DNA of 64,000 nucleotides from Narcine bancroftii. Taxonomy: Eukaryota. Location of the stretch: assembly GCF_036971445.1 (NCBI RefSeq), contig NC_091473.1, forward strand, positions 250,294,001 to 250,358,000. The letters are read 5' to 3'. Below are positions 1,782 through 16,075 of this stretch, piece after piece. The position numbers and the translations under genes are program-made. The number at the start of each line of letters is the position of its first letter. The stretch's first letter is position 1. The notes beneath the pieces were generated by a model. The model saw nothing but the letters and a program-made list of their open reading frames with translations, was not told where the DNA came from and ran no database searches.

Positions 1782-2594
1782 TGTTGGAACCAAGGGGTTA
1801 ATTAATCATAGAAAATATGTAGAATATATGCTTATGTACCATTCAGTTTGTATACATGAATCCAGTACTATGTAACAATTTAATATTTACCTCATGGTGA
1901 AGGGAAGAGTAATGTAAGTAAGGGGCAGCCACAGTATGTAGCAAAGTTGGCTGATTATAGTAGGTTTAGAATTGCCTGCTCCCCAAATACAAAAGAGAGG
2001 ATATGTATGAAACAATTTAATAGGAATGTTAAGGCAAAAGGAGGTGTTGATTAGCACAGGAGATGATGGCCAGACAAGAACAAAGAGAATCCTGACAGAG
2101 ACTGTCAGAAACAAAGAGAATGGAAACTAACTCAGTAAGAAGGCTAAGACAGAAGGAGGTGTTGAGTAGAACAGAAGAATATGGCCAGATGAGAACAAAG
2201 AAATAATTAGAAATATCTGGGGTATGAATTGATTTCTGATCAAAACAACAGGATATTTTGGCCTTGAGGATTAAGATGGGAGCTCTACACCCCAGATCTG
2301 CAGAGCAGGAAATTACTTGTGATACACCTTATGCAAGAAATCTAGCAAAAAAAGCCAACTTTTGTTCTGTATGATAAGGTTGAGCTATATAAACTGTAGA
2401 GACTGGGCAGTAGAGGTCAGTCTTGGGGAATATCTCACTCTGCAGGTGACCTATGAACTAACGACTGAACCAGAGCTCTGTTAAGCTTTATTCTTGTGCT
2501 GTGTAATAAACTGATTGTTCAACCGAATACCTTCTCCTATCACTTCATTTAACAAACACGCTGGACTCAGACGACACATAGCCAGAGTCCAACA
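1782..2594 (+). repeat. ERV-A 5' LTR
   Basis: Starts TGTTGGA and ends TCCAACA (7-bp terminal inverted repeat). TATATAAA 2386-2393, AATAAA 2505-2510. Aligns with 7164-8043. Confidence 0.95.
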
Positions 2595-2597
2595 ATT

Positions 2598-2615
2598 TGG
2601 TGACCCCAACGTGAT
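2598..2615 (+). promoter_or_regulatory. Primer-binding site, tRNA-Trp
   Basis: TGGTGACCCCAACGTGAT, 17/18 identical to the canonical tRNA-Trp PBS TGGTGACCCCGACGTGAT, 3 nt after the LTR end. Confidence 0.9.
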
Positions 2616-2815
2616 GAAGATGGAGAAGTGACGGAAGAGAAAGAGACAAAACAACGGTCGATTGTGGTGTGGTGATAACAACAAGTGGCCACTCAACAAA
2701 AGGAGGTAAGCAGACGTCTGTTTAAACGAAGTTCTGCGATTGGCAATGATAAAATTGTGTGTTGTCACTACTCTGCGAAAGTCCTAGTAGAAGCCAAGGA
2801 ATAAAGCTTAAAAAA

Positions 2816-3018
2816 CCAGGGGTTAGAGTCCCCTGGAGAAACAGGGGTTAGAGTCCCCTGAAAAACCCAGGGGTTAGAGTCCCCTGGAGAAAACGGGGGT
2901 TAGAGGCTCCCTAGAGAAACAGGGGTTAGAGGCCCGTGAAAAAACAGGGGTTTGACTCCCCTGGAATAAAAATGGGGGTTAGAGTCCCCCTAGAGAAATA
3001 GGGGTTAGAGTCCCCTAT
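2816..3018 (+). repeat. Array of 8 stem-loops (GGGG-TTAGAGT-CCCC) in the ERV-A leader
   Basis: Units of about 25 bp, e.g. CCAGGGG TTAGAGT CCCCTGG and ATAGGGG TTAGAGT CCCCTAT, separated by A-rich spacers. Confidence 0.9.
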
Positions 3019-3284
3019 TAGAGACATAGATATAAAAGTTAGCGTTCTTGGTCAAATAGATTTAGTGAACATATTGAATAATAGTTACATTTTTTAGTAG
3101 TGTGCTAAGTTTTCCTTGTTCAGTATTGTATAATAGTTACTTGTTTTAGTATTGTGATAAGTTTTCCTTTTGTGTTTGTAGGAAAGTGTGAAGGTTCAAG
3201 GTAAATTGACGGGGGGTCGAAATTCTATCAGGTGAGAGACTGATTGAATTACGAGGTCTGAAGGGAAAAAGATAGGAACGTAAG

Positions 3285-3977
3285 ATGGAAGGAGAGGAAT
3301 GTCAGGAGTATGGGGGATGTGGATGGATTCCTCCATCTGTAAACCAGCAGTGGGAAAAAACAAGGAGTCAATTAATGGGTGGACTACCGAAGAGAGAGGA
3401 AGTAAAGGCTATGAAACAGTACGATCAGATATGGAAAGAGCTGGAGAGTCAGAAGGTGCCGCTAGGATTAGGAAAAATCAGGCTTGTATCGTACTTAGGA
3501 GAAGCCGAAAGGGAGGCGAAAAAGGAGGTACAGGAACATGAGAAAAAGGGACAAGGGTCTATCTTGAATAGAAGAAAATTTAAACAACAGAAGGAAGCGA
3601 AGGAACAGAGGAGGGGAAATTTACATAATATGACATTGGCTTGCATAGGTGTGGAAACAAACCTTCAGCATGCTACTAAAAAGGCATCCCCTATCACAAA
3701 GGAGAAAACGGGGGAGGAGATGACAGGGGAGGTTAAGCCATCAGCCCCACTCTATCCAAAGTTACCCGAAACGTTGCCACCACCTTATCCGATTCCCAAG
3801 ATGCCAGCAATGCAGATAAATGAGGGAATAGTGAATGTCACTGAATTAGCAGGTCACGAACTCCAGGAGGCGAAAGAGAGACTTAAAGTAGCTGTGCAGG
3901 AAAGGGTGGAGACAATAAAGGAATTGACGAAGGGAATACAGAACGATGCATGTAAAGTAGGGGAAACTAGTATGTGA
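3285..3977 (+). pseudogene. gag: ERV-A gag N-terminal remnant
   Basis: 230-aa ORF after the leader with late-domain-like PSAP/LYPKL/PPPY motifs. No capsid or zinc knuckle follows. Confidence 0.75.
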
Positions 3978-4004
3978 CTGGAAAAAACAAATGAGAGAGA
4001 GCAA

Positions 4005-6721
4005 GAACAGCTGGGGGGCCTAGTACTGCCAAGTGGGGTAGTTCTGATCCAGTACGTAGATGACATCTTATTGGCAGCACCTGAGCCTGTCTCCTGTTTG
4101 GAGGCCACAAGGCTCCTGCTAATGCAGCTGTTCAAGGCAGGTTTTAAAGTCTCTCGTTTAAAGTTGCAATGTTGCAGACAAGTGGTCTCCTTTTTAGGAA
4201 GAATGGTCTCAGCAAAAGGTACAGGGATATCCCCTGTGCATCGAACAGCGATACTACATCATCCAAAACCAAAGACAGTTAAGGAAATGCTTTCATTTTT
4301 GGGCTTGACGGGTTACAGTAGGCAGTTTATCCATCGTATGGTGAGTTGACACATCCACTGCGAACTTTAGTGAATGGGCAGGGGATGAGGAATCTGGGAG
4401 CTACACTTGATTGGATTGCACAGGCTGAGCAGGGGGTGAGGAATCTGGGAACTACACTTGATTGGACTGCACAGGCTGAGCAGGGGATGAGGAATCTGGG
4501 AACTACACTTGATTGGACTGCACAGGCTGAGATGAGTTTTATTCTACTTAAGCAAGCTCTTACAACTGCTATAGATTTGGCGATTCCAAATTATTCTTTT
4601 TGAATGTTTCTGAAAAAGCACACACGATTGTTGGTGTCCTTTTTCAGAAAAAAGAGGGTGGAAGAAGTGTGCTCATGTATGTGAGTATAACACTAGATCC
4701 GACTGAAGACAGACACCCACCATGTACGAGACATGCAGCAGGGGTAGCAAAGATTTTACAAGAGGTGGCACACATAGTAATGGGACATGCCCTGACGGTA
4801 TTAACAACACACAGTATTGTAGCATTTGTGAGCTCAGCACCGTTTACAATGACGTCACTGAGGCAGGCGAGACTGGAAAAGATCCTGAATGCTCCAAATA
4901 TTACGTTTACCCATGAAGGCATTAACATGGCAGACAATATGGGAGAGGGAGAACCACACTGTGTGAAAAGAGAGTTCTAAGGGATATTAAAATAAGACCT
5001 GATTTACAGGCTTCACCCTTGAGAGAACCAGATGAAACCTTATTTACAGATGCCTTTTTAGTAGCATCCAACGGACAGATTAAAAGCCGCCTATGCGGTA
5101 GTATGGAAAACTGCAGAAGGATTTGAAGAAATTATTACAGGGACAATGAGAGGAAAGGGGTAGCACAACTGGCTGAACTACAGGGAATGATAGCAGCATT
5201 AGAATGGGCAGAAGGAAAGGAGGTAAATATATATACAGATTTGGCATATGTGGTAGGAACAATACAGGTTGAGCTTAGTCAATGGATTAGAAGTGGGTTT
5301 TTAACAGCAGCAAGCACCCCAATTAAACACGAGAAGGATGTTAGGAAATTGGCTGAGGCCCTCCTGAAACCGAGGGCACTAGCAGTTATTAAATGTAAGG
5401 GCCATGATAAAAACAGATACGATGGTAGCTCGGGGAAATCAGGAAGCGGACACGGCCACAAAAAGGGCAGCAGAGTACAGCCCTCAGTTTATTATGATGG
5501 AGGCAGATAGAATGGCACATGACTTATTGCCACCTTGTGAGGTAGGAGTAATAATTCAGGAACAAGCGCAGGCATCACCCCAGGGAATGATGGTATGGAA
5601 AGAAAGTGAGGCAACCGAAGATCAAGGACTGTGGAGATCAATGGACAGTAGGCCAGTATTACCATATGGACTCATGAAACCCCTCCTGGAGGAGGCGCAT
5701 GGGTTAACCCACTGTGGGAAGAAACAGATGATAAGGTATTTGGTACATTGGTGGCACCCCTTCCTGCCGGCAATGGTGGAGAATCATATCAGTGTAAGGT
5801 ATGTATGACATACCTTACATACATATGTATGACATACCTGACATACAGTCAAGGCGACTGTGAAACCTCACGAAGGACAGTTTCCGTTGCCTAAGTTACC
5901 AGGGCAGGAAATTGTAATTGTTTACACGGACATGATAGAGAGGGCAAGGGGATATCGCTACCTCTTAGTAGCAGTTGATGTGTTCACAGGTTGGCCTGAG
6001 GCAATCCCTGCCAAAAGAGAAGATGCAAAGACGGTAATTAAGTTCCTAATCAACCAGTAGATATACGGATTTCCTAGGAAGATCAGGTCAGATAATGGGA
6101 GTCATTTTAAGAGTAAAGATTTACAGGAGGTAGAAGCGATGTTAGGGTTAAAACATGCCTTTGGAACGGTGTATCATCCACAATCCCAAGGAAAAGTGGA
6201 GAGGATGAACCAAACAATAAAAGATAAGATCGGGAAAGTACAGGCACGGACCAAACTAAATTGAGTGGATGCGTTGCCCCTGGCATTGATGTCAATAAGG
6301 AGTTCGGTAAGTTATGTGACAGGATTTACTCCGTATGAACTGCAAACAGGGCACCAGTTTCCGGAACCTGAAGCCGGGATTCAGACCACGAAGGAAGAGG
6401 TAAGTCCAATGAAATGTAAGCTTTATTATGATAAACTAACGGCTCTGGTATCAGCTTTTTCACAACAGGTTACAAGAAACTGAACGGAAAGGTGAAACCC
6501 CAATACCATCAGCCGCGGAGTGGGATCTGCTAAAGGTGATCAAGAGAAAGTGGTCGGAGCCCAGGTGGACAGGACCCTACAGAGTGGTGGAGAGGATGTC
6601 CCACGTGGTTCGACTACTGGGAAAAGGAGAGACGTGGTTTCATTGGAGTCAGTGTACAGCAACGGACCCACCGACACGGACACTGGAACAGATTCGAACG
6701 GAGGTGACTGAGAACCTGTGA
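4005..6721 (+). pseudogene. pol: ERV-A pol remnant (RT C-terminal half, tether, RNase H, integrase), frameshifted with stops
   Basis: QYVDD at 4050-4064; FLGLTGY; RNase H IYTD...KCKGH...GNQEAD; integrase HGLTHCG/WWHP, SDNG-like core, [10 protein letters not shown] and C-terminal WTGPY. Confidence 0.93.
4378..4531 (+). repeat. Triplicated 51-bp unit within ERV-A pol
   Basis: GCAGGGGATGAGGAATCTGGGA...GGCTGA at 4378, 4429 and 4480, encoding QGMRNLG(A/T)TLDW(I/T)AQAE three times. Confidence 0.95.
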
Positions 6722-6846
6722 AGCAACTACGGACCAAGAACTTTTTGAACGGGTCCCTTTAAAGAGACTATTGGATTACGGTGACTGTACATCAGTATTC
6801 GAAGTGATACATCTATATCGAAGTCAACAGAATTTAGGGGGCTGTG

Positions 6847-7150
6847 ATGAACGCTATGTGGGGACTATGGGTGATGTTACTCCTAGCCCTTGAAGGGTCT
6901 GGAGAAGGTAACAACTGTTCAAAGTGTTTGCGGTCAGCCTGGGGAGCCCATAATGAACCGGAACAGTACTTTGCAGATTGGACTAACTTTCCTGAACACT
7001 GTGTTGGGGCCCCCACTGGAAAGAAGTGTGTTCATAATGGCCAGGTTTATGAGGTTAAGTTTAATAAGGGGTCGTGGATGCCAGTCTTTGCCAAAACTCC
7101 TGAGGTCCCATAAGTTAACGGGTGGTTTGGTTGGTCTCATTTTCATGAGA
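6847..7150 (+). pseudogene. env: ERV-A env N-terminal remnant joined directly to the PPT
   Basis: Signal-peptide-like MNAMWGLWVMLLLALEG plus a Cys-containing segment, in env position. No TM or ISD before the 3' LTR. Confidence 0.65.
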
Positions 7151-7163
7151 CCAAAAGGGGGAC

Positions 7164-8043
7164 TGTTGGAACCAAGGGGTTAATTAATCATAGAAAATAT
7201 GTAGAATATATGCTTATGTACCATTCAGTTTGTATACTTGAATCCAGTACTATGTAACAATTTAATATTTACCTCATGGTGAAGAGAAAGAGTAATGTAA
7301 GTAAGGGGCAGCCACAGTATGTAGCAAAGTTGACTGATTACAGTAGGTTTAGAATTGCCTGCTCCCCAAATACAAAAGAGAGGATATGTATGAAACAATT
7401 TAGTAGGAATGTTAAGGCAAAAGGAGGTGTTGATTAGCACAGGAGATGATGGCCAGACAAACAAAGAGAATCCTGACAGAGACTGTCAGAAACAAAAAGA
7501 ATGGAAACTAACTCAGTAAGAAGGCTAAGACAGAAGGAGGTGTTGAGTAGAACAGAAGAATATGGCCAGATGAGAACAAAGAAATAATTAGAAATATCTG
7601 GGGTATTGAATTGATTTCTGATCAAAACAACAGGATATTCTGGCCCTGAGGATTAAGATGGGAGCTCTACACCCCAGATATCTGCAGAGCAGGAAATTAC
7701 TTGTGATAAATCTTATGCAAGAAATCTAGCAAAGAAAGCCAACTTTTGTTCTGTATGATAATGAAATCTAGCAAAGGAAGCCAACTTTTGTTCTGTATGA
7801 TAAGGTTGAGCTATATAAACTGTAGAGACTGGACAGTAAAGGTCAGTCTTGGGGAATAGCTCACTCTGCAGGTGACCTATGAACTAACGACTGAACCAGA
7901 GCTCTGTTAAGCTTTATTCTTGTGCTGTGTAATAAACTGATTGTTGAACCGAATACCTTCTCCTATCACTTCATTTAACGAACACGCTGGACTCAGACCA
8001 CACATAGACTAAATTAAGGGTAGGGTAAAGCCAGAGTCCGACA
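7164..8043 (+). repeat. ERV-A 3' LTR
   Basis: TGTTGGAACC...GTCCGACA. Carries a ~42-bp duplication (7721-7803) and a 23-nt U5 segment absent from the 5' LTR. Confidence 0.95.
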
Positions 8044-9730: not shown

Positions 9731-10047
9731 GTACCATAACCACCCTACCCTTATATTCCATGGCTAGTCCATGGTATTGAGATCACCATACAACACTGAC
9801 AGCACTCACATCTTCCAAGCAACATTATAGATGTTGCAATCAGATCACTAATTATAATCTAGCAGTTTCTGCACAGCTGGATCCTGTCTCCTTTCTTCAC
9901 CTCATCTACAGGTGATGCCATGTTTAATTTTCCTTGTTCATCAAACTGAAGGTACTGGGAAGATCCACAAGGATGTTGTTGGGATTGCTGAAAACCAACT
10001 TACAATGAATTAGTCAGGCCTACTTTCCCTGGAGATAAGTAAGAGGT

Positions 10048-10628
10048 TGTGAGAGATGAGTAACACTGATCTAAAAGAAAAGTGAGAGATGAGTAAAACT
10101 AATATGAAAATATGAAGATGAGAAACTAGTGTAGATATATGTGTAATGAATAAAGCCAGAATGAATAGGATAAGAATAGATATTAGAATGTAGGAAGTAG
10201 AGTTAGTCTGAATAAGGTAAGGGTCTTCTAGCCTTTTAGACAGAATCAGCAAGTTCTGCATATGAAGAGGTTGTAGCCCTGAGAGTCGGGAAGGTGTGAA
10301 TTAGAACGAAGGCAGGGTGAATAAGGACAATAAGGATAATGACATGATGGGCACCGACAGGATACCCCCTGGTCCTCCAAGTTCACAGAAACAGCACGTA
10401 GGCAGACAGGATTGCCTAATGCCAAACTTATCCAGGAGGCAGAAGAATGTAAGGGGGAGGGTACTTCGAGACTGAAATAAACTGTATAAAAGTTGGGTGA
10501 GCCCCAGTGTATGTGTGTATTCCCAGGGTAAGGGGAAGCACCCAACTTTGCATTGTTGTCTAATAAATGTTCTTTGTTCTCAATTTTTGTCTCGAGCAAT
10601 TTCTGTGAAGGTATTTCTGTTTCTAACA
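10048..10628 (+). repeat. ERV-B 5' LTR
   Basis: TATAAAA 10485-10491, AATAAA 10562-10567. Near-identical to 17179-17731 apart from an extra ~33 nt at the start. Confidence 0.95.
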
Positions 10629-10630
10629 AA

Positions 10631-10648
10631 TGGGGGATCGTCCGGGAT
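10631..10648 (+). promoter_or_regulatory. Primer-binding site, tRNA-Pro
   Basis: TGGGGGATCGTCCGGGAT, 17/18 identical to the MLV tRNA-Pro PBS TGGGGGCTCGTCCGGGAT. Confidence 0.92.
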
Positions 10649-11978
10649 CCCACTCCCTCCACTGACAGAGTGCCCGACGACGAGCGTAGGTGCACCCCGG
10701 CTGATTCAGCTGGACTCACGGACGGCGGGTGACTGGTCAGTGGATGAAGCGAGTGATATCCGAGAAGAGGCATTGAGAACAAACGACGGGAGGACGTTAA
10801 GGAAGCGCGCTAGGAATAGCTACTGGATCGCGGTAAGAGGAATTTTACTTACCTGTTAGTATGGGAGGTGTGAGTAGCAAGGGAAATAGTCCTAAGGAAG
10901 GACGGGACAATCAGATAACTAAGCAAAGTCCGTTAGGATTAATGCTATCTGATTGGGGTGCGAGGAAAGCCCATGGGAAAGACAAACAAACCATGGCCAG
11001 GTATTGCTGTCTGGAATGGGTTAAAAGTCCGATAAAAGGGAATTCGGTATATTGGCCAAAACTCGGATCCGAGGATGACTGGATGTGTCAGGCATTGAAC
11101 ATCTGGCTCTATCAAAACCAAAGAGATAATATTGAGAGCAGGGAATATGCTGCCTGCTGGCTCAGTGGATCGGTTGATCAACTGGTTTTGAATGCAAGGA
11201 CAAGAAGGATAGAAGGATGAGGAACCTTTTGTCCCTGAAACACAAGGATGGGATGTGTTACATTCCCTTCCTCCACCTTATGCTCCTCCTATGCCTGCTC
11301 CTATCTTTCCCCTCTCTCCTATGCTCTACCCTTCTGCACCTTCCCCTCCTCCTCCACAGCTAAAGAAAGGAGAAGAAAGTAGGGGTGGTATGATGACCCA
11401 TACACAAAGTACTAGATTACCACCTCAATTGACAAGAGAGGGAGGAGACTTTGATTCAAAACAGTGTGAGACCCTCCGGGAGGGAAGGGCAGAACCCTTT
11501 GATTCATTTCCTGGAGAGCAGGAATCTAGACATTATAAAGGAGAGGATAAGCCAGAAATTAACTGGATGAGACCTTTATGGGAAGTTCCCATGTGAGGGG
11601 GTCTCGGTTTTGTAAATGTGCCCCTGACTAGTATGGAGGAGCGTAATTTTAAGAGAGAATGCCCAACAAACAGAAAGGAAAGGCTAAGATTTTGATGCAG
11701 GTAGTCAAGGAAGTCCTGGAGGGACAGCAAGGAAAGGGTAGGGGCTGTGTGCCAGCTCCTGGACAATGGGAGGAGCTCTGGGAGTGGGAGAGTAGAGACC
11801 AGAGCAGGGGCAAGGGTAGAGGGGAATTCCGGGGACGACGACTGTTCCCGGGACCTTGTGGTAATCCCGGTAGGAATTGGGAAACAGGAGCATTAGTTTG
11901 CTACCATTGTAAAAGGAAGGACATTTTAAGAGAGAATGCCCAATGCGAGCCAGGGAGATGCGATCTTACGCACTGATG

Positions 11979-13468
11979 TGTTGGAATATAGGGGTTAATT
12001 AATCATAGAAAATATGTAGAATATATGCTTATGTACTATTCAGTTTGTATACATGAATCCAGTACTATGTAACAATTTAATATTTACCTCATGGTGAAGG
12101 GAAAGAGTAATGTAAGTGTTAGAAACAGAAGTACCTTCACAGAAATTGCTCAAGACAAAAATTGAGAACAAAGAACATTTATTATACAACAGTGCAAAGT
12201 TGGGTGCTTCCCTTTACCCTGGGAATACACACATACGCTGGGGCTCACCCAACTTTTATACAGTTTATTTTAGTATAGGAATACCCTCCCCCTTACATTC
12301 TTCTACCTCCTGGATAGGTTTGGCATTAGGCAATTCTGCCTGCCTACGTGCTGTTTCTGTGAACTTGGAGGACCAGGGGGTATCCTGTCGGTGCCCATCA
12401 TGTCATTATCCTCATTGTCCTTATTCACAAACCTGTCTTTGTTCTAATTTACACCTTCCCGACCCTCAGGGCTACAACCTCTTCATATGTAGAACTTGCT
12501 AATACTAAATTACATATGCAAAAACTGCTAATTCTATCTAGGTAGAAGACCCTTATCTTATTCAGACTAACTCTACTTCCTACACTCTATTATCTATTGT
12601 CTATCCTTATCTCATTCATACCGTAAACTTGCTGATTCTGTCTAAAGGCTAGAAGATTCTTATCTTACTCAGACTGATTCTGCTTCCTACATTCTAATAT
12701 CCATGTCTTATCCTGTTCATACTGGCTTTATTCATTTACCCATATATCTATATTAGTTTCCTCACCTTCATATTTTTATATCAGTTTTACTCACCTCTCA
12801 CATAAGTAAGCGGCAGCCACAGTATGTAGCAAAGTTGGCTGATTATAGTAGGTTTAGAATTGCCTGCTCCCAAAATACAAAAGAGAGGATATGTATGAAA
12901 CAATTTAGTAGGAAGGTTAAGGCAAAAGGAGGTGTTGATGAGCACAGGAGACGATGGCCAGACAAGAACAAAGAGAATCCTGACAGAGACTGTCAGAAAC
13001 AAAGAGAATGGAAACTAACTCAGTAAGAAGGCTAAGACAGAAGGAGGTGTTGAGTAGAACAGAAGAATATGGCCAGATGAGAACAAAGAAATATGAATTG
13101 ATTTCTGATCAAAACAACAGGATATTCTGGCCTTCAGAATTAAGATGGGAGCTCTACACCCCAGATATCTGCAGAGCAGGAAATTACTTGTGATAAATCT
13201 TATACAAGAAATCTAGCAAAGGAAGCCAACTTTTGTTCTGTATAAGGTTGAGCTATATAAACTGTAGAGACTGGACAGTAGAGGTCAGTCTTGGGGAATA
13301 GCTCACTGTGCAGGTGACCTATGAATTAACGACGGAACCAGAGCTCTGTTAAGCTTTATTCTTATGCTGTGTAATAAACTGATTCTCCTATCACTTCATT
13401 TAACGAACACGCTGGACTCAGGTGACACATAGACTAAATTAAGGGTAGGGTAAAGCCAGAGTCCGACA
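11979..13468 (+). mobile_element. Solo LTR of family A inside ERV-B gag (interrupted)
   Basis: TGTTGGAA...GTCCGACA, homologous to the ERV-A LTRs. Perfect TSD GATG (11975-11978 / 13469-13472). Confidence 0.96.
12117..12802 (-). mobile_element. Solo LTR of family B (longer U3 variant), antisense inside the family-A solo LTR
   Basis: Reverse complement of the ERV-B LTR (TGTTAGAAAC...CTCTCACA). Perfect TSD TAAG (12113-12116 / 12803-12806). 686 bp versus 553 bp because of a duplicated U3 block. Confidence 0.96.
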
Positions 13469-13490
13469 GATGGAAGCAGATTATGAATAG

Positions 13491-16075
13491 GGGGGGTCAT
13501 GGTTCTCAGTCAATACACACCGTGGGGCTGCACAGAGAACCATTGGCAAATTTAAGCATAGAACCCTAACAGTGACAAAATGACCTTTTTAGTGGATTCT
13601 GGGACAGCCCGGTCTAGTATTTTACAACCACCCGAGGGTGTTAAGATAAAGGGGACAGTGATGATTTCGGGAGTAGGAGGAAGAGATTTTACGGTCCCTG
13701 TATTAAGGGATGTAAGAATACAAATAGGAGAAAAGATAATAACAGAGGTTATTTTACTAGTTCCCCAAGCTGGAGTTTGTTTGTTAGGACGAGATTTACA
13801 GGACCAATGGGCTATCGGCACCAGACCACAGGAATCGGGTATCGGGGTTCAATTGTATGTATTAAGCGAGGAAGATCGAGAACTAATAAATCCTGGAGTA
13901 TGGGCAGAAAGAAGCAATAGAGGAGTGTTAGATATTCCTTCCCTGCAAGTTACTTTAAAAGATCCTGAGCAAGTAATTAGACGAAAGCAGTATCCAATTC
14001 TGATGGCTGGCCGAAAGGGGCTGCAGCCAGTAATTGACCAGTTGGTGAAAGATGGTATACTCGAACCTTGTATGTCACCTTTTAATACCCCAATTTTACC
14101 TGTCCAAAAACCAGACAGTACCTATCGATTAGTGCAGGACTTGAGGGAGCTGAACAAAATTAGGTTGTACCTAATCCCTATACAATAATGGGTAAAATCG
14201 ATCCCCATAGTAAATGGTTTAGTGTGATTGACCTCAAAGATGCTTTCTGGACCTGTCCGTTAGCAACAGAGAGCAGAGACATGTTTGCCTTTGAATGGGA
14301 AAATCCTTTTACTGGATGCAAGAATCAATACCGGTGGACAGTCCTTCCCCAGGGCTTTACAGAATCACCAAATTTATTTGGCCAGGTCTTAGAACAAATA
14401 CTAGATGAGGCTCCTCGGAGAGAGAATTGCCAGTTGATACAATATGTTGATGATTTGTTAATTATGGGAAAAACGTACGAATTAGTTAAACAGTATACTG
14501 TTGAACTTTTGAATTTTCTGGAGAATAAGGGTCTCAGGGTGAACGAATCCAAATTACAATTTGTTCAATCAGAAGTTAAATACTTAGGTCATCTGGTAAG
14601 TCAGGGAACTAGGAAAATAAGTCCAGAGAAAATACGTGGTATTCTACAGATCCCCTCTCCCAAGAATGTCCAAGAACTTAGGAAATTCCTTGGTTTAATG
14701 GGATACTGTAGAATCTGGATTGAAAATTATTCTAGCCTGGTCAGATTTCTCTATGATAAACTCACGATTCTAGGGGGCGAAGCTGTTGTCTGGACAGAGG
14801 AAGAGATTAAAGATTTTAACTTGGTGAAACAGCGCCTTATTAGTGCCCCAGTGTTGGCTTTACCCGACCTAAATAAGCCATTTGACCTATATAGCAATGC
14901 GAAAGGAGGTGTAGCCACCAGAGTACTAACACAAGAGAGGGCAGGCTGTAGACAGCCAGTTGCTTTTCTGTCAAAGTTTTAGTCCCTGTTTGTCGTGGTT
15001 GGCCAGAATGTGTGCAAGTCATCGCAGCCACTGCTATTTTAGTTGAGGAAGGACGAAAGATTACGTTTGGTGCCCCAATGATAGTTCACACCCCTCACAC
15101 AGTCCGCAATATTCTCTTACAACGTGCTGGAAGGTGGCTCACAGACTCTAGAATTTTAAAATATGAAGCGATCCTAATGGATAGGGATGATTTGACCCTG
15201 ATTAAGAATAAAGAACACAATCCAGCAGCTTTCTTGGTTTCTCCAAATTCTGACAATCCCATAAATGAGTTAGAGCATGTATGTTTAGAGGTAATAGACT
15301 TACTGACCAAAATTAGAGAGGATTTAAGTGATGAGCCTTTACAGGAGAGTGAAAGGTGGTTTATTGATGGATCTTCCCGTTGCACTGATGCCACTCGCTA
15401 TAGCGGGTATAGTGTAGTGGATGGGAAAGAAGGAGTGGTGATTGAAGCTGGTCGCCTCCCCGGTCATTGGTCAGTACAATCTTGTGAATTGTATGCCCTC
15501 TGTAGAGCTCTCCAGGGTCTAGAGAACAAGGTGGGCACTATCTACACGGACTCAAAATACGCTTTTGGTGTAGTGCACACCTTTGGGAAGATCTGGAAAG
15601 AAAGGGGAATGATAACTGGAAAAGGACAAAAGTTGATCCATGAAAACTTAATTGTCCAATCTCTAGATGCTCTTACATTACCTGAGGAAATAGCTGTAGT
15701 TCATGTACGAAGCCATCAAAGTGGTGACAGTCCTGAAGCTGCAGATGGTGCTGCCAAACAGGCTGCGCTCAAGGAGAAAATAGACATGCAGCTGTTACTG
15801 CCCACCCCTGGAGTATCCTATTCATTCTATTAAACCTGGTGATTGGGTATATGTAAAAGCATGGCAAGATCACCTGTCTGGGATGGCCCCTATTGTGTAC
15901 TTTTGATTACAGACACTGCCGTGCGAATGAAAGAAAAAGGATGGAGCCACATCTAACAAATTAAACAAGCTACTGATCCACAGACTAACGACATTGATAA
16001 TCTACCCTCCACCTGGCGTGCAGTCCTTCATCCTTCAGATCTGAAAGTTACACTACGCCGGGAAAAAGTGCTGTA
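13491..16075 (+). pseudogene. pol: ERV-B pro-pol (PR, RT, tether, RNase H; integrase core deleted)
   Basis: FLVDSG protease; YRLVQDLRE, DLKDAFW, LPQGFTESP and QYVDD in RT; WFIDGSS and IYTDSKY in RNase H. At ~15810 it jumps to the integrase C-terminus (PGDWVYVK, WDGPY). Frameshifts at ~14160 and ~14980. Confidence 0.95.

Follow-up and report, generated by a model that had tools for sequence, protein, structure and literature searches.

The provirus and its relatives

The window analysed here, a stretch of 64,000 nucleotides from Narcine bancroftii (contig NC_091473.1), carries near its start an endogenous retrovirus (ERV) whose features all lie on the forward strand. Its 5' LTR (1782..2594), delimited from the sequence by TG...CA ends, contains a TATA box at 2386, a transcription start at about 2419 and a poly(A) signal near 2506; the start and the end of R were placed from the ends of a retrocopy described below. 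It shows 17 mismatches over 799 aligned bases with the 3' LTR (7164..8043), upstream of which lies a polypurine tract (7153-7161). The primer binding site (2598..2615), which we take to be of the tRNA-Trp type, differs by one base from the family form, for which the source genome (G000) holds 1387 exact matches and none for the reversed control.

The major splice donor, GGTAAG (2705..2710, intron from 2706), is conserved across three subfamilies of the element. Further downstream lies an array of eight hairpins (2816..3019), with G-C-rich stems of 4-8 bp, purine-rich 7-nt loops, A-rich spacers and a period of about 26. Directly 3' of it, a second, AT-rich and degenerate 26-nt repeat (3078..3169, about three copies) extends into a pyrimidine tract and stops at a candidate gag-proximal splice acceptor (3161..3181, AG at 3180-3181), which is confined to part of subfamily A. 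The 5' part of gag (3285..3977) ends at a stop codon, is 78% identical to the gag of a longer sister copy and carries PSAP, LYPKL and PPPY, presumably late-domain-like motifs. About 2.9 kb of gag-pol has been lost internally, at about 4002/4003, and a broken pol (4003..6721) follows, which retains the end of RT, the tether, RNase H and integrase. The env splice acceptor (AG at 6453..6454, exon from 6455) is placed by contig joints and by the genomic retrocopy L195/L204. The env remnant (6838..7113) corresponds to the 5' part of the gene, with a putative signal-peptide-like start and no Pfam match.

Other repeats were observed in the window. Within pol, a 51-nt unit is present three times at 4378-4531; contigs of three runs omit 102 nt here, and the triplication looks private to the window copy. 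A second ERV, at about 10000-14200, contains a further LTR of the array-bearing family in two pieces (11979-12117 and 12803-13469); an insertion resembling the second ERV's own LTR seems to have separated them. From 27028 on, a 31-nt unit is repeated in tandem over about 3 kb, with very little variation between copies.

The element is best read as an MLV-like class I (gamma/epsilon-like) ERV, assigned from RT and RNase H scores rather than from a reference-virus tree. Indeed, the RT of an 86%-identical relative scores 6e-108 against the MLV type and 2e-55 against foamy viruses, and the RNase H of the window scores 2e-14 and 5e-4, respectively. Identity with Lokiretrovirus, whose RNase H groups with foamy viruses (PMC7947760, in the part available), was ruled out because both domains are nearer to MLV than to foamy viruses. 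Among named proteins, the nearest are from an electric ray (89%) and from teleosts and a shark, whose Pol proteins are 62-87% identical. The pol tether (P0004, P0006) is 83-87% identical to remora and mackerel proteins versus 77% to the shark match, which hints at a possible transfer between fish classes. Outside the source genome, relatives were absent from viral contigs and limited to one short pol-side contig in metagenomes. A pattern of two hairpin units found no match in bacterial genomes; its sole match in viral contigs was an unrelated phage protein repeat.

The hairpin array in the window and in the family

The first-pass annotation of this DNA had reported eight hairpins, of which units 4 and 5 had imperfect stems, and both points are borne out. 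Cores of the form GGGG-7 nt-CCCC start at 2819, 2844, 2870, 2896, 2922, 2947, 2975 and 3001, which makes eight matches in the window versus 1.4 expected, and at least eight were found in none of 100 shuffles. The repeat period is 26. The predicted folding energy of the region is -96.7 kcal/mol (z -4.7), a value as good being reached in none of 200 shuffles. Single perfect units fold as had been described. When the array is folded as a whole, the minimum-energy structure also pairs arms across units, because all arms are alike, and eight separate hairpins would be one among several near-equal predicted folds. An Rfam scan of the array gave five matches (E up to 5), all well under the gathering score, which neither a tRNA family nor any other reached.

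A search of the source genome for the exact core gave 1479 matches, versus 6 for the reversed control. Each of the 30 loci retrieved by likeness to the leader has 4-10 units, in a set biased by a query that itself contained the array. Loci were also chosen by primer site alone: 90 were fetched and 86 parsed, four being missed by the probe, and these comprise 30 copies of the array-bearing family, 55 of another family and one singleton. The array is present in all 30 family copies (one duplicated pair included), about 213 nt downstream of the primer site, with 3 to more than 44 units. It is also present in intact relatives, a point on which the earlier reading had been made to depend: 19 of 20 regions upstream of pol matches with long open frames show both primer site and array, and the remaining one has no primer site within the fetched stretch.

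The other family sharing the primer site (L081, L091, L148 and 52 more loci) is a second abundant ERV family, with a donor-like GGTGAG directly after the primer site and long predicted stems. The three loci examined of its 55 have no tandem array.

Three subfamilies were distinguished in a set of 76 loci and 731 units, after removal of one duplicate, one locus of another family and one large expansion. Subfamily A has mainly the loop TTAGAGT and 3-10 units, and subfamily B mainly TTGGAGT and 3-11 units; in subfamily C, TTGGAAT and TTGAGGT loops alternate over 14-25 units. Their leaders diverge by only about 10%. In the 200 nt 3' of the array, A is about 45% diverged from either B or C, with the array core unchanged. 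This combination of a diverged flank and a stable core points to the array, not to its downstream neighbour, as the likelier seat of a cis signal. Within the units, the inner G-G-U-U...C-C positions differ between subfamilies by at most 0.05 in most cells (worst about 0.07), versus 0.4-0.9 in the spacers.

The large expansion, L202 (G000:C1:4385500-4390100), has reached 95 units over 2.5 kb, almost all of two 26-nt types, and 44 of the 95 units are a stem-breaking variant. It is an ERV leader that has become a minisatellite, grown at a single locus in the host chromosome. The spread of broken-stem units at this locus indicates that slippage alone does not preserve stems.

Splicing and the copies that lack the array

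The array lies about 110 nt inside the intron, downstream of the donor. Contigs of three of four runs join 2705 to 6455 with GT..AG ends, and one contig of one run joins 2705 to 3182, also with GT..AG ends. The four runs, presumed to be RNA, come from a single study and were available as contigs only; the flank being repeated, the env joint could partly stem from a genomic retrocopy. Such a retrocopy exists in the genome. L195/L204 (L204:986-2715, G000:C27, minus strand) starts at R, has the donor joined to the env acceptor, carries a poly(A) tail and an 18-nt target duplication, and has no 5' U3. These last three features show that it was not made via the retroviral path: it is a LINE-type retrocopy of a spliced env message, from which the array was removed by splicing. 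It marks the transcription start, the donor, the acceptor and the poly(A) site. The GGTAAG noted in the first-pass annotation is a used donor, on the evidence of both the contig joints and this retrocopy.

The end of exon 1, searched as a pattern, is followed by GT in 506 cases (a pattern count, not singly inspected, which misses copies altered within the pattern) and by other bases in 29. These 29 comprise 14 unrelated matches, 13 point-changed donors with the array and two copies joined downstream, so that only 2 of about 521 family matches are array-less. In L198/L203, the array is lacking, the 5' LTR bears U3, and the leader passes directly into gag across 8 nt of microhomology, a junction that fits either a splice or a deletion. 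Spliced RNA keeps the primer site, the purine tract and R, yet it almost never became a provirus, which suggests that a needed cis signal would lie downstream of the donor.

The position inside the intron also suits a role in splicing or translation, in which the array would restrain splicing, and so maintain a pool of genomic RNA, or would block ribosome scanning until the leader intron is removed. It adjoins the conserved donor, a joint from 2705 to 3182 would excise it and leave the gag start, and G runs and UAG words are hnRNP-type sites. However, the acceptor at 3182 exists only in part of subfamily A and its use is documented by that one contig. We regard such a role as improbable; it would be compatible with a role in packaging.

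Stem variation and selection on the RNA

The first-pass annotation had seen outer stem pairs of the window copy change together and had attributed this to selection on RNA structure rather than to simple slippage. The first of these claims holds in part. Changes at the sixth and fifth pairs are family-wide, namely C-G to T-A at the sixth and a G-C / G-U / A-U series at the fifth, whereas the A-T pair of unit 8 is private to the window copy: its CCCCTAT ending is found in none of the 29 other copies of the leader-likeness set, nearly all of which have CCCCTAG. The stem breaks of units 4 and 5 are absent from their counterparts in these 29 copies. Across 741 units, the sixth pair is A-T in 258, C-G in 209 and T-A in 33, and the fifth is G-C in 327, A-T in 139 and G-T in 103, with many mismatched cells at both.

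When the 33 recurrent unit types are counted once each, the Watson-Crick fraction at the sixth pair is 0.576 versus 0.377 after shuffling (p 0.0075), and the fifth pair is not significant (p 0.099). The covariation score of the window alone is 0.245, as high a value being found in 10 of 500 shuffles; that of 29 distinct types is 0.240 and was reached by 2 of 500 shuffles. These tests ignore descent, and related sequences can outscore shuffles without any structure. The argument for selection rather than simple slippage survives only in a modest form, since the two shuffles out of 500 are offset by a +1 slide that scores higher (0.320). Among the 29 distinct types, no double change occurs at the three innermost (G-C) pairs, and CpG decay accounts for part of the fifth-position series. 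A search with a 67%-identical protein, intended for more distant sister families, retrieved the same family again. Compensation at the two outer pairs appears real, modest in extent and built on few events.

The only lineage-wide change of the inner stem in A and B retains a G-U pair (56 units, 17 loci), and this kept pair, together with the broken stems of L202, hints at selection on the plus-strand RNA. Perfect units fold near-equally on the two strands. G-U-type variants favour the plus strand (-8.4 versus -5.0 kcal/mol for the B variant; means -7.95 versus -7.36), and recurrent types include 14 with G-U versus 10 with A-C, a weak difference. Subfamily C units are weak, with about -5 kcal/mol, a z of 0.06 for the dimer unit and their best pairing with an 8-nt loop.

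The array could instead be a nearly neutral minisatellite, in which slippage amplified an ancestral hairpin and compensation is only apparent, being produced by CpG decay, slips in the length of G/C runs, spacers inherited in common and correction templated by the hairpin. Unit numbers from 3 to 95, a CG/CA/TG series at the fifth and sixth positions that matches CpG decay, and the small number of independent compensatory events agree with such an origin; furthermore, recombination among like units would hold arm pairs together without selection. It is harder to reconcile with the near-constancy of the inner bases across subfamilies against the variable spacers, with a sixth pair seen as C-G, T-A and A-T, and with the fact that no sampled provirus falls below 3 units, tandem repeats being easily lost during reverse transcription. 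We consider it an improbable account of the array, which would then be ordinary.

Resemblance to the tRNA T-arm

The first-pass annotation had compared the hairpins to tRNA T-arms. In subfamilies A and B, they share with T-arms a G-C-closed stem of about 5 bp and a 7-nt loop that starts with UU and has a purine at position 4 and A at position 5. Over 741 units, U1 is present in 738, U2 in 735, purine-4 in all 741 and A5 in 614. Variation falls at loop positions 3, 6 and 7, and in A and B mainly at 3 and 7, as in T-loops. The T-loops of tRNAs are of the form UUCRA and those of FMN and cobalamin riboswitches YGNRA, and a UUAAA loop is described as resembling that of a tRNA, with modest activity (bioRxiv 10.1101/2022.12.26.521914, in the part available). 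The looser form UUNRA fits 251 of 265 A units and 216 of 218 B units (together 467 of 483), versus 128 of 248 C units. Strict mimicry of the T-arm is not sustained, since C56 is lacking in 730 of 731 units (TTCRA being found in one) and about half of the C units lack A58. The A and B units may nevertheless adopt a generic T-loop fold.

Such loops, with a lone U1-A5 pair, might bind a host protein that handles tRNAs or a T-loop receptor in the leader. The bias at U1, U2, purine-4 and A5 above the G-C closing pair, the fit of A and B to UUNRA and the activity described for UUAAA would agree with this. The virtual lack of TTCRA, the 120 C units that fail UUNRA, the preference of C for an 8-nt loop, the predicted closure of loops ending in G to triloops and the lack of any Rfam match at gathering score speak against it, and we give it little credence. 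A DNA-level role, as repeated TFIIIC B boxes or palindromic transcription-factor sites, is very improbable, since despite a GGTTNRANNCC-like spacing and the near-equal folding of both strands of perfect units, the units do not have the GTTCRANNC that a B box requires, subfamily B carries a G at the position equivalent to C56, where C56G abolishes function in the assay cited in the available part of PMC5391098, and G-U-type variants favour plus-strand RNA, weak as the difference in their counts is.

A candidate packaging signal

As the first-pass annotation had pointed out, the array sits where leader packaging signals lie, between the splice donor and gag, and it does so family-wide. On balance, we lean towards the view that it may be the core of the RNA packaging signal, common to the family and variable in copy number, and that it perhaps also serves in dimerisation. 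The Gag of a longer family copy has one CX2CX4HX4C (CCHC) knuckle, and 722 of 731 predicted loops have at least two G. CCHC knuckles bind exposed guanosines, and in HIV-1 and MLV the packaging signals occupy the interval from donor to gag (PMC7599994, in the part available).

The single zinc knuckle of Gag would find unpaired guanines in each loop. How many units a copy has would be set by slippage or by template switching, both at the identical core, and selection at the time of replication would retain at least a few folded units with an inner stem and a G-rich loop. The identical arms would let two genomes pair, which would amount to dimerisation. The history of defective copies is consistent with a packaging role. 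Indeed, the window copy, L007, L013 and L179 share an identical deletion junction and all have arrays, which indicates that a defective lineage multiplied with functions supplied from outside and did not lose the array.

Several observations weigh against a packaging role. The scarcity of spliced proviruses places a signal somewhere downstream of the donor, not specifically in the array; the copy L198/L203 lacks the array despite its U3-bearing 5' LTR; C units are weak and covariation is shallow; the second family with the same primer site shows no tandem array in the loci examined; and the NC of MLV binds linkers, not hairpin loops.

In a more specific version, which we hold to be doubtful, the array would be a tunable multivalent signal made of T-loop hairpins lacking C56, and competing subfamilies would balance the strength of the hairpin against the number of units. 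In subfamily C, weak stems would then go with 14-25 units and with an alternation of T-loop-type and GAG-type loops, and A and B would combine strong stems with 3-11 units. If this is true, the subfamilies provide a natural dose series for the number of Gag sites needed for genome selection. More generally, a packaging role would make the array an unusually simple packaging signal, in which a single hairpin recurs n times and nature supplies hundreds of variants that differ in number and loop, and the number of nucleocapsid sites required for selective packaging would become testable with short RNAs.

Comparison with known retroviral leaders

ZFERV and SSSV, two class I retroviruses of fish, have direct repeats between primer site and gag, the interval in which the array lies. 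A literature search retrieved neither a description of a leader hairpin array of this kind, although leader repeats as such may be known, nor a packaging signal for a class I retrovirus from fishes or sharks; the available portions of PMC8672886, PMC4977317, PMC9967133 and PMC8278194 contain nothing on such an array.

The known signals of HIV-1 and MLV differ from each other in the way they are recognized: hairpin loops are bound in HIV-1, and linkers exposed upon dimerisation in MLV, whose NC binds single-stranded UCUG linkers and not its own hairpin loops (PMC7599994, in part). By inspection, the list of array loops contains no GACG tetraloop and no self-complementary (kissing) loop. The array is set apart from the HIV-1 and MoMuLV signals by being made of near-identical tandem repeats, from 3 to 95, with 7-nt loops, and its function is a predicted one. 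It nevertheless resembles HIV-1 SL2/SL3, with their GGUG and GGAG-type loops, and MoMuLV DIS-2/SL-C/SL-D, which are likewise several short hairpins located in the donor-gag interval and not in spliced RNA, and the Gag of MLV, like that of the array-bearing family, has one guanine-binding CCHC knuckle (PMC7599994, in the part available).
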